NCBI RefSeq assembly: GCF_013122565.1
Contig: NZ_CP053258.1
Reading direction: 5' to 3' (one strand)
Origin: Escherichia coli
Lineage (GTDB): Bacteria; Pseudomonadota; Gammaproteobacteria; Enterobacterales; Enterobacteriaceae
Length of the DNA stretch: 64,000 bases
Position numbers and translations under genes: made by a program. The notes beneath the pieces are model-generated. The model saw nothing but the letters and a program-made list of their open reading frames with translations, had not been told where the DNA came from and made no database searches. This document shows positions 5,806 to 44,663 of this stretch, piece after piece. Within the stretch, counting starts at the first letter, position 1, and each line of letters opens with the position of its first letter.

Positions 5806-6336
5806 TTATTTGCGGCGAGGCATCATTCGTAACAGAGTATTATCTTTCTGAATGTAGTGATGAAAGAGTGCTGCGCCAGCGTGAGCTGCGATTAAAAAGT
5901 AACCTATATTTGCCCAGGTTTCGTGAATATTTTTTATCAGTGCTTTAATTTCGCTGTTTGGGGTAACAAAGGGAGACACATTGAAACCAAGGAAACTCCA
6001 CGATTTTCCACTGTAAGCCATTAAAGCAATCCCCAGCAGAGGAAGCGCAAGGAAGGTTATATAAAGCATGATGTGCATTAGCGAAGCCGCTTTCATTTGC
6101 CAGGCAGGTGGCGGTGGCACAATAGAAGGATCACTATAACGGTGTTTTATAATCAGGCGTGAAAACATTAACACCCAAACGAATATACCCGCATTGTAAT
6201 GTGTTTCTCGCATCAGCAGATAAGTATTACTACCTTTAGGAAACCAGCCACGGAGTTCCATCGCGGCATAGGTTATTGCAACGAAAAGCAGCGTTATCCA
6301 ATGTAAATAAATTTGAGTTTTTGAGAATCGGTTCAT
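5806..6336 (-). CDS. yodB: Cytochrome b561 family membrane protein YodB (176 aa)
   Basis: ORF 5806..6366 (-) contains MNRFSKTQIYLHWITLLFV...; start set at ATG 6336. Confidence 0.85.
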   Translation of the reverse strand: MNRFSKTQIYLHWITLLFVAITYAAMELRGWFPKGSNTYLLMRETHYNAGIFVWVLMFSRLIIKHRYSDPSIVPPPPAWQMKAASLMHIMLYITFLALPLLGIALMAYSGKSWSFLGFNVSPFVTPNSEIKALIKNIHETWANIGYFLIAAHAGAALFHHYIQKDNTLLRMMPRRK

Positions 6337-6678
6337 TTTTGTAGCTCCTGTAATTTTCACAGTCAAGCTATCCCACGAACCTTAAAAATTCCTTATACAG
6401 ATGTGGTTTTAAGAATTTGTTATTTAAAAAATTGATAGTGCACATTGTAACCAGCCAATATAAGCAATGGCGAGAGCACAGGTATCTAACTCTGTTGGCC
6501 GTATTGTGTATGGAATCCGTTATTGGTTAACTCAATGCGGGTTAGCTTATTAATATACAGACACGTCATAGTGATGAGCGTGTCTGTAGCTAGCTTGCGT
6601 TCAGTGGCGTTTATGGATGCACCAGTGGCAGTTATGATGACTTACTAAAGCGGCATCGAGACGTTATCATGAGAATAC

Positions 6679-7329
6679 TCAATGAGACATCATTTCCTCG
6701 ACCACTTCTTCGCTACTCAACTGATATGGATAATACGTTGGCCAGTTTTCCATTTCATTCAATAAAGATTGCTGTGAATCATTACCCATAAAAATGTGAA
6801 AATGAGATGATTTTCGTGGTGCAATTATATGATCGCTAAATTGTATATATTTAGGGGCTTTGCTTTTAGGATCTTTACATTCGAATAAGTAACGAACGCC
6901 TTTCTTGCCTGATTTATAGGTGAGTATTTTGTATCCATCGTAATCATATTTACAGGATGTTGTTTCATTATTTCTATGGAATTCAACAATGCCGTCCTCA
7001 ATGCCAATCATCTCGATATCTGTCGCATAACCTTTGTGATAATAATCTTTAATTTCAGCAAATATTTTAGTTTTATCTGCATCCGCTTTTTTCTGAAAGA
7101 CGGGGTCAAGTTTGCCACTTTGCAGTAAAGGATAAACGGATTGCCAGACTCCATCCCAGTCACTTAGCGTTCGGTTTTTTACATTGGCATCATCAAAAAC
7201 ACCATTAGCAGCTTTTTGTTCGATCTCTGTTAAAGGTTTACCGTGTGAGTGATGACCATGCGAAAAGGCAGGAGCGCTAACAATAAAGACACCTAAAGCA
7301 ATAGCCAGTTTATGAAGACGAATCGCCAA
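6679..7329 (-). CDS. zinT: Periplasmic zinc/cadmium-binding protein ZinT
   Basis: 216-aa ORF with HGHHSHGK motif; first codon is TTG, preceded by GGAGGA at about 9 nt. Confidence 0.88.
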
Positions 7330-7362
7330 AACAGTTTCCTCCAGAGTTAATGTATATGATGT

Positions 7363-7385
7363 GTAATGTTATATTGTAACATATA
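7363..7385. promoter_or_regulatory. Zur-box-like palindrome upstream of zinT
   Basis: ATGTTATATTGTAACAT palindrome (7366..7382) about 40 bp upstream of the zinT start; resembles the recalled Zur box consensus. Confidence 0.5.
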
Positions 7386-7522
7386 ACAAAATGCAACAAC
7401 TCTTAGGAGACAAGAGAATAGTTCTCTCAGGTGTGCTTATCTATCTTATTGAAATAAAATAAATTATGTTGGTAATTTGAGGTTGATGACAAACGAAACA
7501 TAACCTGATGCGATCTGTGTAT

Positions 7523-7552
7523 GCCGGATAGGGCGCTCGCGCCGCATCCGGC
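7523..7552. repeat. REP (repetitive extragenic palindrome) element
   Basis: GCCGGATAGGGCGCTCGCGCCGCATCCGGC-type palindrome between zinT and msrQ; approximate coordinates. Confidence 0.5.
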
Positions 7553-7585
7553 AGGGATAACGCGTACTTTGTCGGCAATATGAAA

Positions 7586-36066: not shown

Positions 36067-36456
36067 GTTGTGTAACCTGTTGTTAATTACATCCGATCTC
36101 ACAGCGTGGGGCATGGATGGGGCAAACTCACTCTATTTCTGGTTTAAAATGGATACCTGATCATGAACGTTTTCTGCCATCCACGCTCCGTAACGCGATA
36201 ACCCCCTGAATATCAGAGTGTCTCATTTGACACATCACCACGTCGGATGTTGTTACGACCACAGACGCAACAGTAACCTCTGGATAATTTAATCTTTGTT
36301 GATGTTTTTATTCATATTCCGGGCTAGGGAAATAATCAGGCATAATTGTGTCACTGGAATAGAGGTTTCTTGTGGCGCATGTGGAAGGAGCGTCTACTAT
36401 TGTCTAATAGAGATTTCTTATTACGCAGTTTTGTTCATCACTAATCTCCAGGTTTA

Positions 36457-37125
36457 TCAAACAGGTTGAATTAACTCCGCGCCCTGGTTTTTAACATTAC
36501 CCACCGCGCGCGATACCGGGTGCCAGGTGAACTGGTTTGCTGACACACAACCACTGGTAGCGATTTCTGAGGCTTCTTTACCGCCAATATCTTGCCGCAT
36601 CCATTCCCGCGCAGCTTCTGGCGACAGAACCAGAGGGCGGCGGTCATGAATATCTACCAGACCCTGGTCTGCTGCTGCAGTGACGATCAAAAATCCTTCG
36701 GCTTCGTCACCACGCTCGAACGGTGTGCTACCTATCGCGGCCATAAAAATAGGTTGTCCATCAGCACGATAGATAAAAAAAGGCTGTTTTTTGTCGCCTT
36801 CTTTTTTCCACTCAAACCAGCCATCGGCAAAACAGATTGCCCGACCATGTTGCCAGAGCGGCTTAAACATGCGACTGGTTGCGGCAGTTTCTACGCGGGC
36901 GTTAATCAGCGGCGGTTTATCCCACCATCCGGGAGCATATCCCCAGAAAACCGGATCCAGATGAAGGTGTTCGTCACGTTCACTGAGCAGAAGGACTTTG
37001 GTTCCCGGCGCGACGTTGTATCTGCCAATGGGTTCGGGATCATAGGGAATATCGCGTTCAATATCTTCCGCGAGAAGCGCAAGGTAATCTTCACGCGTTT
37101 GGGATTGGGCAAAGCGTCCACACAT
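36457..37125 (-). CDS. yedK: SOS-response-associated peptidase (SRAP) YedK, abasic-site processing protein (222 aa)
   Basis: ORF 36457..37218 contains MCGRFAQSQTREDYLALL... with the SRAP N-terminal Cys2; start set at ATG 37125. Confidence 0.88.
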   Translation of the reverse strand: MCGRFAQSQTREDYLALLAEDIERDIPYDPEPIGRYNVAPGTKVLLLSERDEHLHLDPVFWGYAPGWWDKPPLINARVETAATSRMFKPLWQHGRAICFADGWFEWKKEGDKKQPFFIYRADGQPIFMAAIGSTPFERGDEAEGFLIVTAAADQGLVDIHDRRPLVLSPEAAREWMRQDIGGKEASEIATSGCVSANQFTWHPVSRAVGNVKNQGAELIQPV

Positions 37126-37233
37126 AGAAACCTCCTGAGAGCACACTGAAAAGAATAGGAGAGGGGGCGGGTAAAATCTATGTGGTACAGAGGCAACGAT
37201 ATTCCCGCTGTGGGCCACAGCGGGAATGAGGGA

Positions 37234-37467
37234 TTACTTCTGAATTAAATAACGAATGGTCGGCCCGTCTTGCTGAATATCCAGCACCGTATAGCCGTGA
37301 TTACGCGCATCCAGTGGAATATTATTGATCGACTGCGGACAGTCGCTCACCACTTCCAGGATTTCCCCTTTTTTTAACTGCGGCATCGCCTCAAGAGTTG
37401 CGACTGCCGGATAAGGGCAGGGTTCACCCACCATATCAAGGCGGTAATCAGGAACGATATTTTTCAT
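37234..37467 (-). CDS. yedF: TusA-like sulfur-carrier protein YedF
   Basis: 77-aa ORF with CPYP motif (MVGEPCPYPAVATLEAM); start overlaps yedE stop. Confidence 0.88.
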   Translation of the reverse strand: MKNIVPDYRLDMVGEPCPYPAVATLEAMPQLKKGEILEVVSDCPQSINNIPLDARNHGYTVLDIQQDGPTIRYLIQK

Positions 37468-38669
37468 GCGATCTCCTTAGCAGTCTGCGGTGCCGCACGG
37501 CGGAAGAAGCGTTTTTCCCAGCCGATAATCAACATCAGCGCAGCAAACAACAGCAAATATGTCACCAGCAGGCCACCCATCGGGCCAAAGGTTTTCAGCA
37601 GGTTAATTTTGTCCCAGTCGGTGGCCAGCGCCGGAGCGAAATCATCCCAGTAATACGCCAGAATCGTTGAGCCGATCACGTTGCCCAGACCGACCCACCA
37701 GTAGTGCACCTGGCCTTCTACCGCGCGGTACATCCAGCCGGTTTCGCAGCCGCCTGCCAGCACGATGCCAAAACCAAACAGTAAACCACCAATTACCGCG
37801 TTTGGTCCTGCCCACATGATTTTGGGTTCAACACCTAACTGTACGTAACTGAAGATCCCGATGGCACTCACCGCCATACCGATAATGATTGCTTTCGCCA
37901 TATGGGTACGTCCGGTGATCCACATATCGCGGAACGCCGAAGTAAAGCAGATTTGCGCACGTTCAATCAGTAAACCAAAGCCGACGCCAAACAGCATTGC
38001 CAGCCCCAGTTTTGGTTGGTTCATCGCCGTGAGCAGCGCCCAGCCCTGCATACCGAAAAAGACCAGCATCCCGAGACGAAAACGACGCCGCGCCTGATCC
38101 GGTTTTTGCGTCAGCGGTGAGGCGGCAGAAACTTTCTGCATTTTCACGGGAATACGGAAGATGGGCAGCAGGGTAAAGCGCGCGCCAAACCATGAACCAA
38201 TGGCAGTGGCGATGGCAAAGAACCAGGCATGCAGCGAGAACTGAGGAATACCGGTAAAGAACGCCGCCAGGTTACAGCCCATTGCCAGACGCGCGCCAAA
38301 ACCAGCGATAATACCGCCAATGATGGCCTGCATAATGCGGATACGGCTGCGTGGCATGCGCAGTTTGACATTGTTGGCCCACAGCGCTGCGGCAAAGCAG
38401 CCGCCAAACATACCGAGGATCATCATCCCGTCGATGCGGGTTAATGGCGATCCTTCCAGATGGATAATTTTAAAGTAACCCCACTCTTCAGCATGGACGC
38501 CGAACAGCTGCAGGAGCTGGCCGCCCCAACGGGTAAATTCACCCGTGACAGCCCAAAAGGTGCCAGTGATGCCAAAATAGTAAGTGGAGAGAATACCCGC
38601 CGCGATGACCGCGGGGATGGGCGCCCAGAATTTAATCAACCAGGCGTGTTTGAATTGCTGCCATGACAT
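37464..38669 (-). CDS. yedE: YedE family inner membrane transporter (putative selenium/thiosulfate uptake)
   Basis: 401-aa polytopic membrane ORF MSWQQFKHAWLIKFWAPIPAVIAAGILSTYYFG... Confidence 0.88.
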   Translation of the reverse strand: MSWQQFKHAWLIKFWAPIPAVIAAGILSTYYFGITGTFWAVTGEFTRWGGQLLQLFGVHAEEWGYFKIIHLEGSPLTRIDGMMILGMFGGCFAAALWANNVKLRMPRSRIRIMQAIIGGIIAGFGARLAMGCNLAAFFTGIPQFSLHAWFFAIATAIGSWFGARFTLLPIFRIPVKMQKVSAASPLTQKPDQARRRFRLGMLVFFGMQGWALLTAMNQPKLGLAMLFGVGFGLLIERAQICFTSAFRDMWITGRTHMAKAIIIGMAVSAIGIFSYVQLGVEPKIMWAGPNAVIGGLLFGFGIVLAGGCETGWMYRAVEGQVHYWWVGLGNVIGSTILAYYWDDFAPALATDWDKINLLKTFGPMGGLLVTYLLLFAALMLIIGWEKRFFRRAAPQTAKEIA

Positions 38670-38855
38670 GAATGTAGCCTCTGAACTCAGAAGGTTTGAA
38701 ACAAGAGTCGCGAATCATACATCAAGCAAATTTATTTTCGGGGTAATAATTCACAAAAATAATAGTTAGATCAAATTTCTCGCTGAACCTGGAAAGGCTG
38801 GCGACATCAGGGCTTTAATGCCACAATCCTCTTTTCTTCTCATGCAGGACGAATG

Positions 38856-39269
38856 ATGAAAAAACTCGCAATTGCAGGCGCGCTCATGTTGCTGGCGGGC
38901 TGTGCCGAAGTCGAAAACTATAACAATGTCGTGAAAACCCCCGCGCCGGACTGGCTGGCGGGCTACTGGCAGACCAAAGGGCCGCAACGTGCGCTGGTCA
39001 GTCCGGAAGCGATAGGCAGCCTGATTGTCACTAAAGCGGGCGATACCCTGGATTGCCGTCAGTGGCAGCGGGTGATTGCCGTGCCGGGTAAGTTGACATT
39101 GATGTCTGATGATCTCACTAACGTTACCGTAAAACGTGAGCTGTACGAGGTTGAGCGTGACGGTAACACCATTGAGTACGATGGTATGACGATGGAGCGT
39201 GTGGATCGCCCGACAGCAGAGTGTGCCGCCGCGCTGGATAAAGCGCCGTTACCGACGCCACTGCCGTAA
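38856..39269 (+). CDS. yedD: Lipoprotein YedD (137 aa)
   Basis: ORF 38853..39269 begins MMKKLAIAGALMLLAGC (lipobox LAGC); second ATG chosen. Confidence 0.85.
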   Translation: MKKLAIAGALMLLAGCAEVENYNNVVKTPAPDWLAGYWQTKGPQRALVSPEAIGSLIVTKAGDTLDCRQWQRVIAVPGKLTLMSDDLTNVTVKRELYEVERDGNTIEYDGMTMERVDRPTAECAAALDKAPLPTPLP

Positions 39270-39302
39270 TGAAATCTCCCCGGCTTGCTGCCGGGGATGA
39301 AT

Positions 39303-40790
39303 TTAAATCACCTCTTCGATAACCCACACGCTAACGCTGCCGCCGTTGCAAAAGAAGGTCGCTTCGCCGTTTTCGTCGGTTACTACACTCTCTTGCCGGT
39401 TCCCAAGAAAATCACGCCAGGTTTTATTGCCGTAATTCTCTCCTAAATGAATGGTTTTTTCGCCATCATCTCCGTTCGACATGACCACCACGCAGCCGGG
39501 ATATTCGTCGGTGCCACTGCGGCTAAAGGCAATGCAGTTCGGATGGTCGAAAAATAACGTCTGTACACCGTGGGCGAAACGCTGACGGGCGAGAATTAAC
39601 TCATCAAGTTGTTCGATTATTGGCATATCTATCGGATAGGTTTGCCCGTCACCGCCGACATCTTCGTAATGTGCACCGTAGAGATCCGGATAGAACACCG
39701 AAGGAACGCCATTTTCCCGCAACAAAATTAAGGCATATGCCAGCGGTTTAAACCACGGTTCGACCGGCGCTTCGAGGGCTTGCAACGGTTGGGTGTCGTG
39801 GTTGGCAACGAGCGTCACGGCGTGGAAAGGATCGGCTTCCACTAATGTACCCGTGAAAATCTGCGTCATGTCGTAGTCGCGCCCCATGCGCGATGCTTCA
39901 TGGAATTTCATCTGCAGCGGTGCATCGAACAGCATGGTTTTGCCTTCCACCTGATCAATATACGTTTGCAGTTTATCGACTTCATGCGACCAGTACTCTG
40001 CCACAATAAACAGCGGCTTTGGCGCAACTTCCTGTACGTGTTCGATCCACTCTTTATAAAACCACGCCGGTATATGTTTGACCGCATCAAGACGAAAACC
40101 GTCGCATTGTGTTTGTTCCATCACCCAGCGCGCCCAGTATTTAATCTCTTCCGTCACGGCATGATTGCGGAAATCGATATTCTCACCCATCAGATAATCG
40201 AAATTACCGAGTTCATCATCAACCTGATCGTTCCAGCCTTCGCCGGTGTAGTCGTTAACAATTTTAAATATGCCATCTTCATCAGGATTTTCGATATGGT
40301 CGATACCGCTAAAACATTTGAAATCCCAGATAAACTGCGAGTATTGCCCGGCACGAGCGGGGAAGGTGTAACGCGTCCAGCCTTCGCACTCAATGATTTC
40401 TTCGTCAATTTGCGTACGGTCATCAGCATTTACACGCTGCACGCGAATAGCTTCTTTTTCATCCGCGCCCATTTTGTGGTTGACTACCACATCCAACAGC
40501 ACCGCAATGTCATTACGTTTCAGAGCGTCAATGGCGGCCAGCAGTTGTGCTTTATCGCCATATTTAGTAGGGATGCTGCCTTTCTGATCAAACTCGCCTA
40601 AATCAAATAAATCATAGGAGTCGTAGCCGACCGAATACCCGCCCGATGCGCCTTTATAGGCGGGCGGCAACCAGACCATATTGATACCAATATCATTAAA
40701 ACCGTCGGCGCGCTCGGCCAGTTCAGGCCAGAGCTTACCGCCTTCCGGGTAATACCAGTGAAAACATTGTAACAGCGTGGGATTACGCAT
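39303..40790 (-). CDS. amyA: Cytoplasmic alpha-amylase AmyA
   Basis: 495-aa [50 protein letters not shown]...; GH13 motifs. Confidence 0.92.
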
Positions 40791-40867
40791 TCTTCGACTC
40801 CATTCAAGGGGAACATTAGAAGCGTAGCCGTAATCAGATTATTCGCGAGCCATTAGCTCGTTAAGAT

Positions 40868-41233
40868 TCACGAGAAGTTATCTTGCGGAGCCAGCACAAA
40901 GCCGCCCTGATCGCCATAGGCACTTAACACCGATTTTTGCACCGATGACTGACCGACCAGTTTCGCCAGTTCATTCATCCGAATCTGTAATAACTGCTTT
41001 ACCTTGCTTTCGTTATCGAGAATCAGGCGCAGCATCGGGCGGAGCTGCTCCTGCATCGTGGTGGACGGGTCAATCTCATCAGTCAGATGTGCAATCTCCT
41101 GCACCGCATTCACATACGCCATTTCGCTGGCGATGAGTTCGTCCCATTGTTCTTCCGTTGCCAGGCGTAACATGAGCTGGCTTTTTTCGACGAGTTGTTG
41201 CCAGGCGAAATACAAATGCGGTGCGTGGTTCAT
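40868..41233 (-). CDS. fliT: Flagellar export chaperone FliT
   Basis: 121-aa [36 protein letters not shown]... Confidence 0.9.
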
Positions 41234-41643
41234 CAGACTGGGTCCTGAATCAAAGAAGGGGAGAGTAACGACTCTTTCCAGGCATCGGCAATATTGCGCA
41301 TTAATGCTTCCACTTCTTCGACTGCGGAGACATCGTTGCGTAAATTGGCTTGCAGCAAACGCCTGACCATATAGCTATAAAGAGCAATCAAGTTTTGGGT
41401 TAATTCGTCTTTGCTCTCTTCATCAAGACTCACCCGAAGTCCGTTCTCAATGATGTTGATCGCTTTTGACAAAGAGACGCCTTTGCCTTGCTGATTGTTG
41501 TCCTGCATAAACAGGCGCGCTCTAACCAGTGCGCTCAGCACTCCATCAAATAGCATGGTGACCAGCTGCTGCTGGCTGGCGCTCATTACGGCGCTTTCGA
41601 CGCCAATTTGTGCATAGGCCTGGGTGCCTTTTGCCGCGTACAT
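41233..41643 (-). CDS. fliS: Flagellin-specific export chaperone FliS
   Basis: 136-aa [37 protein letters not shown]... Confidence 0.9.
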
Positions 41644-41658
41644 AGTTTCTCCTGAAGA

Positions 41659-43074
41659 TTATTTCGAGTTGCTATTTGAGGTGTCGAACTGCTGTGTCAG
41701 ATAGCTACTGGTGGAGTTAAGCGAGTTCATTAACACATCTAATTGGGTGAACTGGGCTTTATAGCGCGTCATTAAGGTATCGATACGCTCACTGGCTGCG
41801 TTGTACTGGTCGGTCAAATTATTAAGCGTTTTGCTGACGCCATCTTTTGCGGCCTGGATTATCCCGGTGGAAGAGAGCCAACTGGTCAGGTTGCTACTAA
41901 TGCCGGTGGTTACCCCTGTACTTTTACCGTCACCTATAAACATTTCACCGATGCCAGCGGCATCTTTTTTTAGCGCCGTTTGCAGTTTGTCAGTCGCGAT
42001 TTCCAGCTTGCCGGTACTGGCATCGCTGGTAATGCCAATCTGTGCCAGCGTTTTATAGTTTGAACTGCTGTGAGTATTGGCGAGCAAGGTTTTAAGCTGA
42101 GTCTGGATGGTACGCAGTGTGGAGTCACCGAGTAATGCGCCATTACTGGAGTCCTGACTTTCTGCTCCGGCATCGACAGCGGTGTATTTGGTTAAGCTAC
42201 TGAATGTATCCTGCAATGTGTTATAGGCATCCACCCATGCTTTGACCGCATTTTCAGCTTTGGATGTGTCTTTATTGATGGTCAGTGTCTGATTACCGGT
42301 GGTGACGTCATTCAGGTTGAGTGTGATATCTTCCAGCGCGTCGCTGATAGTGTTACTGCTGTTTTCAATCTCAACGTTATTGACTGTCAGTTTGGCGTTT
42401 TGCGCGGTGACGCTTTCAATCATGCCATTGCTGCTATCACCCGACGTTCCGTTGTAACCCATAAAACTTTCCAGGGCGCTGTCGCCGCTGACGCTAAGTT
42501 TCATAGCGTTATCGTTGCCCGTATCGTTAGCGGTGATGGACAGACGATATTCGCCGTTTCTCACATTGATGATACTGGCGCTGACACCAGCTTTGGCGTT
42601 GTTAATGGCATCGCGAATGCCGGAAAGTGACGAGTTAGCTGCGCTGATATCAATCGTGACCGGATCTTTACCGCCGCCTTGCTGGATGGTCAGTACGCTA
42701 TCGCTGGTGGCGATGGCAGCTTTACTGTCTTTTTGACTAATTTTTGTGGTCAGCGTTTGTGCCTGCGCCAGTTGGCTAACGCTAATGGTGTATTTCCCGG
42801 CAATCGCGCTGCCCGTGGTGGTGGCGCTGAAAGCCGATGAACTGCTGGTGGTTGAAGTGGCGGTAAATAAATCGGCTTTATTCAGTGCTGTGTTGGCTGT
42901 CTGGAAACTCTCTAGTGCACTTTTCAGCGTCCCGTAGGCGCTCAGTTTCGCGGTGTAAGAGCTTTGCTGTTTTGATATCGGCGTCAGGGTAGATTTTTCT
43001 GCCGCCTCCAGACTGTCAAGGATGCTGCTTAAATCCAGCCCCGACCCAACCCCAAGCGTTGAAATACTAGCCAT
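41659..43074 (-). CDS. fliD: Flagellar filament cap protein FliD
   Basis: 471-aa ORF MASISTLGVGSGLDLSSILDSLEAAEKS...; conserved termini, variable centre. Confidence 0.9.
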   Translation of the reverse strand: MASISTLGVGSGLDLSSILDSLEAAEKSTLTPISKQQSSYTAKLSAYGTLKSALESFQTANTALNKADLFTATSTTSSSSAFSATTTGSAIAGKYTISVSQLAQAQTLTTKISQKDSKAAIATSDSVLTIQQGGGKDPVTIDISAANSSLSGIRDAINNAKAGVSASIINVRNGEYRLSITANDTGNDNAMKLSVSGDSALESFMGYNGTSGDSSNGMIESVTAQNAKLTVNNVEIENSSNTISDALEDITLNLNDVTTGNQTLTINKDTSKAENAVKAWVDAYNTLQDTFSSLTKYTAVDAGAESQDSSNGALLGDSTLRTIQTQLKTLLANTHSSSNYKTLAQIGITSDASTGKLEIATDKLQTALKKDAAGIGEMFIGDGKSTGVTTGISSNLTSWLSSTGIIQAAKDGVSKTLNNLTDQYNAASERIDTLMTRYKAQFTQLDVLMNSLNSTSSYLTQQFDTSNSNSK

Positions 43075-43116
43075 ATAAATTCCTTAATCATGCGACGTAT
43101 AGAACGAATACCGGGG

Positions 43117-43143
43117 TTATCGGCGTAAGCGGGGCAAAGTTTA
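43117..43143 (-). promoter_or_regulatory. Sigma-28 (FliA) class 3 promoter for fliDST
   Basis: Minus strand reads TAAACTTT-N11-GCCGATAA, matching the sigma-28 consensus TAAAGTTT-N11-GCCGATAA. Confidence 0.55.
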
Positions 43144-43216
43144 CGATTTATTTTTTGGCTTAATGACACGAACAGCAACGAGGAAGGGGAGTATTTCGAC
43201 CGCTAGAAAAAAATTC

Positions 43217-43243
43217 TAAAGGTTGTGAGTGACCAGACGATAA
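43217..43243 (+). promoter_or_regulatory. Sigma-28 (FliA) class 3 promoter for fliC
   Basis: TAAAGGTT-N11-GACGATAA on the plus strand, about 75 bp upstream of the fliC ATG. Confidence 0.55.
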
Positions 43244-43319
43244 CAGGGTTGACGGCGACGAAGCCGAAGGGTGGAAGCCCAATACTTAAACCGTAGACTT
43301 GAAAACAGGAAAATGAATC

Positions 43320-44663
43320 ATGGCACAAGTCATTAATACCAACAGCCTCTCGCTGATCACTCAGAACAACATCAACAAAAACCAGTCTGCGCTGTCGACT
43401 TCTATCGAGCGCCTCTCTTCTGGTCTGCGCATTAACAGCGCTAAAGATGACGCTGCGGGCCAGGCGATTGCTAACCGCTTCACTTCTAACATCAAAGGTC
43501 TGACTCAGGCCGCACGTAACGCCAACGACGGTATCTCTCTGGCGCAGACCACTGAAGGCGCACTGTCTGAAATCAACAACAACTTGCAGCGTGTTCGTGA
43601 ACTGACCGTTCAGGCCACTACCGGTACTAACTCTGATTCTGACCTGTCTTCAATCCAGGACGAAATCAAATCCCGTCTCGATGAAATTGACCGCGTATCC
43701 GGTCAGACTCAGTTCAACGGCGTGAACGTACTGGCAAAAGATGGCTCGATGAAAATTCAGGTCGGTGCAAATGATGGTCAGACAATCAGCATTGATTTGC
43801 AGAAGATTGATTCTTCTACTTTAGGGTTAAATGGTTTTTCTGTTTCCAAAAATGCAGTATCTGTTGGTGATGCTATTACTCAATTGCCTGGCGAGACGGC
43901 AGCCGATGCACCAGTAACCATCAAGTTTGATGATTCAGTAAAAACTGATTTAAAACTGACCGATGCTTCAGGGTTAAGTCTGCATAACCTCAAAGATGAA
44001 AATGGTAATTTAACTAACCAGTATGTTGTACAGAATGGCGGAAAATCTTACGCTGCTACAGTCGCTGCCAATGGTAATGTTACGCTGAACAAAGCAAATG
44101 TAACCTACAGCGATGTCGCAAACGGTATTGATACCGCAACGCAGTCAGGCCAGTTAGTTCAGGTTGGTGCAGATTCTACCGGTACGCCAAAAGCATTCGT
44201 GTCTGTCCAAGGTAAAAGCTTTGGCATTGATGACGCCGCCTTGAAGAATAACACTGGTGATGCTACCGCTACTCCACCGGGAGCATCTGGGACAACAGTT
44301 GTCGCAGCGTCAATTCATCTGAGTACGGGCAAAAACTCTGTAGACGCTGATGTAACGGCTTCCACTGAATTCACAGGTGCTTCAACCAACGATCCACTGA
44401 CTCTGCTGGACAAAGCTATCGCATCTGTTGATAAATTCCGTTCTTCTTTGGGGGCGGTACAGAACCGTCTGAGCTCCGCTGTAACCAACCTGAACAACAC
44501 CACCACCAACCTGTCTGAAGCGCAGTCCCGTATTCAGGACGCCGACTATGCGACCGAAGTGTCCAACATGTCGAAAGCGCAGATTATCCAGCAGGCAGGT
44601 AACTCCGTGCTGTCCAAAGCTAACCAGGTACCGCAGCAGGTTCTGTCTCTGCTGCAGGGTTAA
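43320..44663 (+). CDS. fliC: Flagellin FliC (447 aa; H-antigen type not determined)
   Basis: MAQVINTNSLSLITQNNINKNQSALSTSIERLSSGLRINSAKDDAAGQAIANRF... conserved N- and C-termini (ends ...QVLSLLQG) flanking a divergent central domain. Confidence 0.93.
   Translation: MAQVINTNSLSLITQNNINKNQSALSTSIERLSSGLRINSAKDDAAGQAIANRFTSNIKGLTQAARNANDGISLAQTTEGALSEINNNLQRVRELTVQATTGTNSDSDLSSIQDEIKSRLDEIDRVSGQTQFNGVNVLAKDGSMKIQVGANDGQTISIDLQKIDSSTLGLNGFSVSKNAVSVGDAITQLPGETAADAPVTIKFDDSVKTDLKLTDASGLSLHNLKDENGNLTNQYVVQNGGKSYAATVAANGNVTLNKANVTYSDVANGIDTATQSGQLVQVGADSTGTPKAFVSVQGKSFGIDDAALKNNTGDATATPPGASGTTVVAASIHLSTGKNSVDADVTASTEFTGASTNDPLTLLDKAIASVDKFRSSLGAVQNRLSSAVTNLNNTTTNLSEAQSRIQDADYATEVSNMSKAQIIQQAGNSVLSKANQVPQQVLSLLQG

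Follow-up and report, generated by a model that had tools for sequence, protein, structure and literature searches.

A TTG start codon and a Zur operator in the zinT control region of an Escherichia coli genome

Two questions are raised by the DNA in front of zinT (yodA) in the Escherichia coli genome studied here: at which codon translation of the gene begins, and whether the inverted repeat upstream is an operator for Zur. A preliminary description of this DNA, a stretch of 64,000 nucleotides that is called the window throughout, held that the first codon of the only full-length frame is TTG with a good ribosome-binding site, that a Zur-like palindrome (ATGTTA...TAACAT) lies about 40 bp further upstream, and that both features are consistent with zinc regulation. 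The reading favored by the evidence presented below, with a probability of roughly 0.94, is that the locus is the standard, already described Zur-repressed control region of zinT. It holds no novelty, as the TTG start and the Zur operator are both known, in the K-12 annotation and in the Zur literature.

The zinT coding sequence occupies positions 6679..7329 of the minus strand, a strand left out of the preliminary description, and encodes 216 amino acids including a signal peptide, as identified from the list of open reading frames and from profile and PDB matches. The product belongs to the ZinT/YodA family: in profile searches it exceeds over its full length the curated cut-offs of the NCBIfam ZinT equivalog NF007639 (429 bits, cut-off 300) and of Pfam PF09223 (282.7 bits, cut-off 27), and over its entire length it can be aligned with E. 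coli YodA/ZinT in PDB entry 1s7d (E=9e-147). Six residues differ from K-12 ZinT. The signal-peptide coding region (7261..7329, minus strand) covers residues 1-23, in which n-, h- and c-regions are recognizable, and the cleavage site precedes the His-rich N-terminus HGHHSHG, which follows the signal peptide directly. The mature PDB chains 1oee and 5aq6 (193 aa) match residues 24-216. Since these chains begin at residue 24, residues 1-23 are read here as a cleaved signal peptide that, by the sequence, could be supplied by the TTG start alone. Histidines are present at positions 167, 176 and 178, that is, 144, 153 and 155 in mature numbering; His144/153/155 in the mature numbering of the YodA structure are the three metal ligands.

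The window is collinear, in reverse orientation, with the interval from 1.984 to 2.048 Mb of K-12 MG1655 at about 97-98% identity, and the gene order hiuH-msrP-msrQ-zinT-yodB is the same as in K-12. The 1-kb zinT region is present in 5,417 of 5,426 complete E. coli genomes, with a top match of 98.6%. Further along, at 36333-36400, the window lacks about 1.9 kb of K-12 DNA (the yedL-yedN-intG pseudogene region); the adjoining 7.4 kb (yedK to fliD, within 36333-44405) is 91% identical to K-12, against about 98% elsewhere, and the central part of fliC is unalignable to K-12, as expected for a different H antigen.

The TTG at 7327..7329 (minus strand) is the first ATG, GTG or TTG after the in-frame stop. 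Thirteen sense codons precede it in frame, none of them one of these three triplets, and the frame is closed by a TAA at 7369..7371 (minus strand) that sits within the Zur box. The first internal methionine of ZinT is residue 107, and the TTG is the sole ATG, GTG or TTG between the upstream stop and this residue; the claim that TTG opens the only full-length frame (7329..6679) therefore stands. An in-frame upstream ATG that might have been misread was looked for, and none was found among the 13 codons before the TAA at 7371-7369. The description of the ribosome-binding site as good was borne out as well: a Shine-Dalgarno sequence, GGAGG, lies at 7338..7342 (minus strand), 8 nt 5' of the TTG, and its duplex with the anti-Shine-Dalgarno 3' end of 16S rRNA has a predicted energy of -9.3 kcal/mol. 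GGAGG is unchanged in seven aligned E. coli strains, whereas strain A34, which was aligned separately, has GGAGA; a GAGG/GGAG core occurs at the equivalent place in other genera.

TTG is among the rarer start codons. At zinT it is accompanied by a Shine-Dalgarno sequence at 8 nt, inside the range of 5-9 nt, by no rival in-frame ATG or GTG, and by conservation of its position in orthologues. Comparison with K-12, as the preliminary description had suggested, settled the point in its favor: zinT of K-12 MG1655 (b1973) is annotated from the homologous TTG, and PGAP starts the gene at this codon in A34, ST131, O157:H7, 2015C-4498, YD786 and STEC299. The TTG at 7329-7327, already used in the reference annotation, is thus confirmed as the predicted translation start. 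Annotations of zinT should accordingly begin at the TTG rather than at an internal ATG or, for relatives like E. albertii, at an upstream ATG that belongs to the promoter. The neighbor of zinT, yodB (5806-6366, minus strand), presents the opposite case, in which the first TTG is probably not the start: the mechanical call from an upstream TTG gives 186 aa, whereas yodB is annotated in K-12 and A34 as 176 aa from an internal ATG (MNRFSK...).

Translation could be imagined to begin instead at the near-cognate in-frame codons CTG (7344-7342) or ATT (7323-7321), or at Met107. The cleavage of the signal peptide leaves room for such proposals, since the mature protein gives no N-terminal evidence on the start codon, and in E. 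albertii the frame is open upstream as far as an ATG in the Zur box, so that gene callers could pick a longer protein. We nevertheless regard initiation away from the TTG as highly improbable. The CTG overlaps the Shine-Dalgarno sequence and has no other to serve it; the ATT would be spaced 14 nt from that sequence; a start at Met107 would leave out the signal peptide together with the His-rich N-terminus, which is at odds with mature chains that begin at residue 24. The ATG of the Zur box is out of frame in the window (7382-7329 = 53 nt); it belongs to the promoter and precedes every plausible transcription start. The position of the start codon, moreover, is exactly conserved across genera.

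This conservation was assessed by scanning one genome per species for a DNA pattern encoding an 11-residue ZinT motif, which yielded 35 zinT loci; the 30 with a complete upstream region, including the window, K-12 and A34 and covering about ten enterobacterial genera, formed the comparison set. All 30 carry a start codon at the homologous position, 480-489 nt before the ZinT motif. It is TTG in 20 loci (Escherichia, E. albertii, most Citrobacter, two Salmonella subspecies, Yokenella, Atlantibacter, a Raoultella-labelled MAG and [Erwinia] mediterraneensis), GTG in five (Kluyvera, C. sedlakii, Raoultella ornithinolytica) and ATG in the remaining five (Pantoea, a MAG and a divergent copy in E. 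coli E69). In Pantoea, the ATG lies one codon upstream of a TTG that has been kept at two of the three loci, and of a GTG at the third.

Several loci encountered in this survey deserve separate mention. The E. albertii leader is 5 nt shorter, which, in this species alone, puts the ATG of the Zur-box half-site ATGTTA into the reading frame of zinT, and the upstream stop of that frame is gone; ORF finding consequently returns a protein that is 16 codons longer (MLQYNITNPTTQEKTV-LATRL...). As this upstream ATG falls in the promoter, it is a likely source of mis-annotation. In the record titled E. coli strain E69, the ZinT homologue is divergent: it has a signal peptide of its own (MMVVNKLAFALGLLLTGNYALA) and starts with ATG, and a separate Zur box precedes that start by 28 nt; this is either a second, acquired zinT copy or a mislabelled species representative. 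Two MAGs labelled 'uncultured Bacteroides sp.' and 'Bacillota bacterium' hold zinT fragments whose translation is identical to that of E. coli over the stretch examined, and these are probably misbinned or contaminating Enterobacteriaceae DNA.

As to the inverted repeat, ATGTTA (7366-7371) and TAACAT (7377-7382) form a perfect 6-5-6 repeat whose near edge is 36 nt and whose center is 45 nt from the TTG, in agreement with the distance of about 40 bp given earlier. The 17-bp core palindrome that contains it, ATGTTATATTGTAACAT (7366..7382), has one mismatch to ATGTTATANTATAACAT and is the sole site in the 64 kb within three mismatches of that sequence, where 0.14 would be expected by chance. The structure-based 20-mer for E. 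coli Zur, given in IUPAC code as TGWNAYRWTATAWYRTNWCA and including the skeleton RNNNYRNNRYNNYRNNNY, was taken from Gilston 2014. It represents a two-dimer operator and is matched exactly at 7362..7381, with no other exact match in the 64 kb; even with two mismatches allowed, 0.2 sites would be expected there by chance. With the older 23-bp gamma-proteobacterial consensus, GAAATGTTATA-N-TATAACATTTC, the site has four mismatches (18 of 22 specified positions match), and it is the sole site in the window at four mismatches or fewer, counted once per strand. The 20-bp box precedes the zinT start by 32 nt and lies over the predicted core promoter.

The operator is larger than the 6-5-6 palindrome noted at first: it spans 20 bp, accommodates two dimers and has further overlapping dyads that reach out to 7388. 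A second, offset dyad, TGTTATAT/ATATAACA (7367..7388), overlaps the first, and its arms pair at 8/8 positions here and at 7/8 in K-12. Overlapping dyads are usual for operators of the Fur family. An offset match to the 20-mer, with two mismatches, is found at 7367-7386. The role of the second dyad is doubtful, because its distal arm is polymorphic within E. coli.

Published binding data place the operator at this position, which answers the comparison with Zur footprints that had been proposed. The gel-shift probe Cy5-zinT-f, comprising 47 genomic bases (Table S2 of Gilston 2014, PMC4219657), has its counterpart at 7347..7393 (minus strand), with 46 of 47 bases matching and T for C at 7386 as the mismatch. 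Two Zur dimers bind this PzinT probe cooperatively in vitro, with an apparent Kd of 0.053 × 10^-18 M^2, and deletion of zur raises zinT mRNA 984-fold in K-12 (Gilston 2014, PMC4219657). The zinT Zur box has been placed at -23 to -4 (Velasco 2018, PMC5916954). No DNase I footprint of PzinT turned up in the literature searched; the Introduction of Gilston 2014 (PMC4219657) mentions about 30 bp of DNase I protection but cites a 1998 paper on znuABC. The exact box sequence returned no match in a full-text literature search and is present only in Table S2 of Gilston 2014. The exact 20-mer match and the published probe together bear out the label "Zur-like". The suggestion that both features are consistent with zinc regulation can be kept for the palindrome, on the Zur data, but not for the TTG: a literature search found no link between the TTG start of zinT and zinc control, nor any initiation profiling or mutagenesis of that codon, and a connection between TTG and zinc control has no support.

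The palindrome might alternatively be a site for Fur or another regulator of the Fur family, in which case zinT would respond to iron or oxidative stress and not to zinc. Boxes of this family are all AT-rich inverted repeats, and the Fur box, GATAATGATAATCATTATC, likewise is an AT-rich operator with overlapping dyads that lies over -10/-35 elements. Effects of Fur and SoxS on yodA were reportedly described by Puskarova and colleagues in 2002, which counts for a role of Fur. At the level of sequence, however, the likeness ends: the 19-bp Fur consensus is matched near the site with eight mismatches at best, 594 sites in the window do as well, and a Fur box at the zinT palindrome was rejected as a background-level match, whereas the match to the Zur 20-mer is exact and unique. 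The affinity of purified Zur for the homologous fragment, furthermore, is very high, and zur deletion de-represses zinT about 1000-fold. Discrimination between Zur and Fur sites is provided by Tyr45 of Zur (Gilston 2014, PMC4219657). There is only a very slight chance that the site belongs to Fur or one of its other relatives.

The identification as a Zur operator is also consistent with conservation. With the upstream regions anchored on the palindrome itself, each of the 30 orthologous loci shows it at 0-3 mismatches and at a distance of 27-36 nt from the start. The 20-mer with at most one mismatch occurs 38 times in 260,803 nt of related loci, each time 531-540 nt ahead of the ZinT motif and never elsewhere; this is the position of the zinT promoter. 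Flanking DNA is essentially unalignable between genera, except for a TTGnnn 8 nt upstream of the palindrome and the Shine-Dalgarno sequence. The cross-genus alignment is thus a clean phylogenetic footprint, in which a 17-20 bp operator is kept while the surrounding DNA is not. The idea that the palindrome arose by chance in an AT-rich promoter and regulates nothing can draw on the abundance of perfect 6-5-6 repeats (27 in the window, one per 2.4 kb, against 16.6 in shuffles, so that symmetry alone proves nothing and the sequence counts), but it is refuted by the unique match to specific Zur motifs, by the fixed distance from the zinT start in about ten genera amid unalignable DNA, and by the location within a published Zur-binding fragment.

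Within E. coli, the 70 nt from the -35 to the TTG differ between strains at up to 4-7 positions. The box, the Shine-Dalgarno sequence and the TTG are invariant in seven diverse strains, and variation among these falls in the -35 and spacer, in the leader and in a patch at 7406-7435 (minus strand). This patch, about 25-55 nt upstream of the Zur box, carries a cluster of about ten substitutions relative to K-12 within 30 nt, and its version differs by E. coli lineage. In the window strain it contains a hairpin, AGAGAA-CTA-TTCTCT (7413-7427), which was rejected as a conserved structure because it is not kept in other Escherichia; the patch looks like unconstrained or recombining DNA rather than a structural element.

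The promoter elements were read from the sequence. A candidate -35 hexamer, TTGCAT, lies at 7391..7396 (minus strand) and coincides with the TTGnnn that precedes the palindrome by 8 nt in Escherichia, Citrobacter, Salmonella, Kluyvera and Yokenella. A candidate -10 hexamer, TATAAC, follows the conserved TTGnnn after 17 nt (7368..7373, minus strand); alternatives on the same strand are an extended -10, TGnTACAAT (7381-7373), and TAACAT (7371-7366). All three fall within the 20-bp Zur box, and repression by promoter occlusion is for this reason the most likely mechanism, as judged from the sequence; it is consistent with the published box position of -23..-4. A consensus promoter scan, which overall returned no more sites than expected by chance, missed the zinT promoter, since the -10 lacks the final T required by the rule of the tool, and the promoter elements were therefore deduced from cross-genus conservation. 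The best sigma-70-like match of the intergenic region in that chance-level scan (TTGTCA, 18 nt, CATAAT; 10/12) is at 7463-7492 (minus strand), about 80 nt upstream of the Zur box and between a REP element and the zinT promoter; it may serve as an additional promoter further upstream, read through the operator. The REP-type element, a GC-rich imperfect palindrome (TGCCGGATAGGGCGC/GCGCCGCATCCGGCA), is located at 7504-7553 just downstream of msrQ, as in K-12. In one of the seven sampled strains, E. coli 2015C-4498, a 5-bp deletion (window 7392-7396) removes TTGCA of the candidate -35 while the Zur box, the Shine-Dalgarno sequence and the TTG are intact; the promoter there could rely on the extended -10 (TGnTACAAT) and not on a -35, or zinT expression could be altered.

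Transcription is predicted to start near 7358 by the published numbering and at 7362-7360 by the -35/-10 geometry, positions that differ by 2-4 nt, which gives a predicted 5' leader of about 29-33 nt (7330..7362, minus strand). A search of the supplements of Mendoza-Vargas 2009 for a transcription start found no entry for zinT/yodA. The leader has no structure beyond chance (fold z = +0.5) and matched no Rfam family; a leader RNA structure or riboswitch was rejected on these grounds, and there is accordingly no sign of a second, RNA-level control.

The following sequence of events can be proposed, in which promoter occlusion, the exact transcription start and the -10 hexamer in use are inferred. 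When zinc is sufficient, two Zn-loaded Zur dimers would bind the 20-bp operator (7362-7381) cooperatively; the bound operator would cover every plausible -10 and the start-site region, so that RNA polymerase would be shut out. When zinc is scarce, Zur would lose its regulatory zinc and leave the DNA, and the promoter would fire from the -35 TTGCAT and a -10 within the box. An unstructured leader of about 30 nt would then be made, ribosomes would load on GGAGG and start at the TTG (7329-7327), and the 23-residue signal peptide would send ZinT to the periplasm, where it is the zinc-scavenging partner of ZnuABC.

The closest known system is PzinT of K-12 (b1973), which is the same locus: the TTG start, the Shine-Dalgarno sequence and the 20-bp Zur box are identical. 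The T for C at 7386, just outside the box, makes the second dyad perfect in the window strain, unlike that of K-12. The znuA/znuCB operator, crystallized with two Zur dimers (Gilston 2014), shares with zinT the RNNNY-xxx-RNNNY arrangement and the 20-mer pattern, as well as cooperative two-dimer binding and promoter overlap. It differs in serving a divergent pair of promoters, in being about 150-fold weaker (8.2 vs 0.053 × 10^-18 M^2) and in a repression of about 7-fold as against about 1000-fold. The small Zur regulon of E. coli also includes ykgM (L31p) and pliG. Their operators have the same motif as zinT but stand before other genes, which code for a paralogue of a ribosomal protein and for an inhibitor of lysozyme, respectively; the pliG operator is weak and shows a single-dimer intermediate.

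The window thus carries an intact, canonical zinc-starvation switch. One question that it raises is why a weak TTG has been retained across several genera. The homologous codon is still TTG in Escherichia, Salmonella, most Citrobacter, Yokenella and Atlantibacter, and this persistence despite an unalignable leader, when a single T-to-A change would give ATG, suggests that it may be kept by selection and not by accident. We hold this only tentatively and consider it rather unlikely; nor is TTG obligatory, as three lineages have switched to GTG or ATG. If it is selected, the TTG could restrain translation of the transcripts that leak from the promoter under the tightest Zur repression, and it could also pace the synthesis of ZinT, a zinc-binding protein exported by the Sec pathway.
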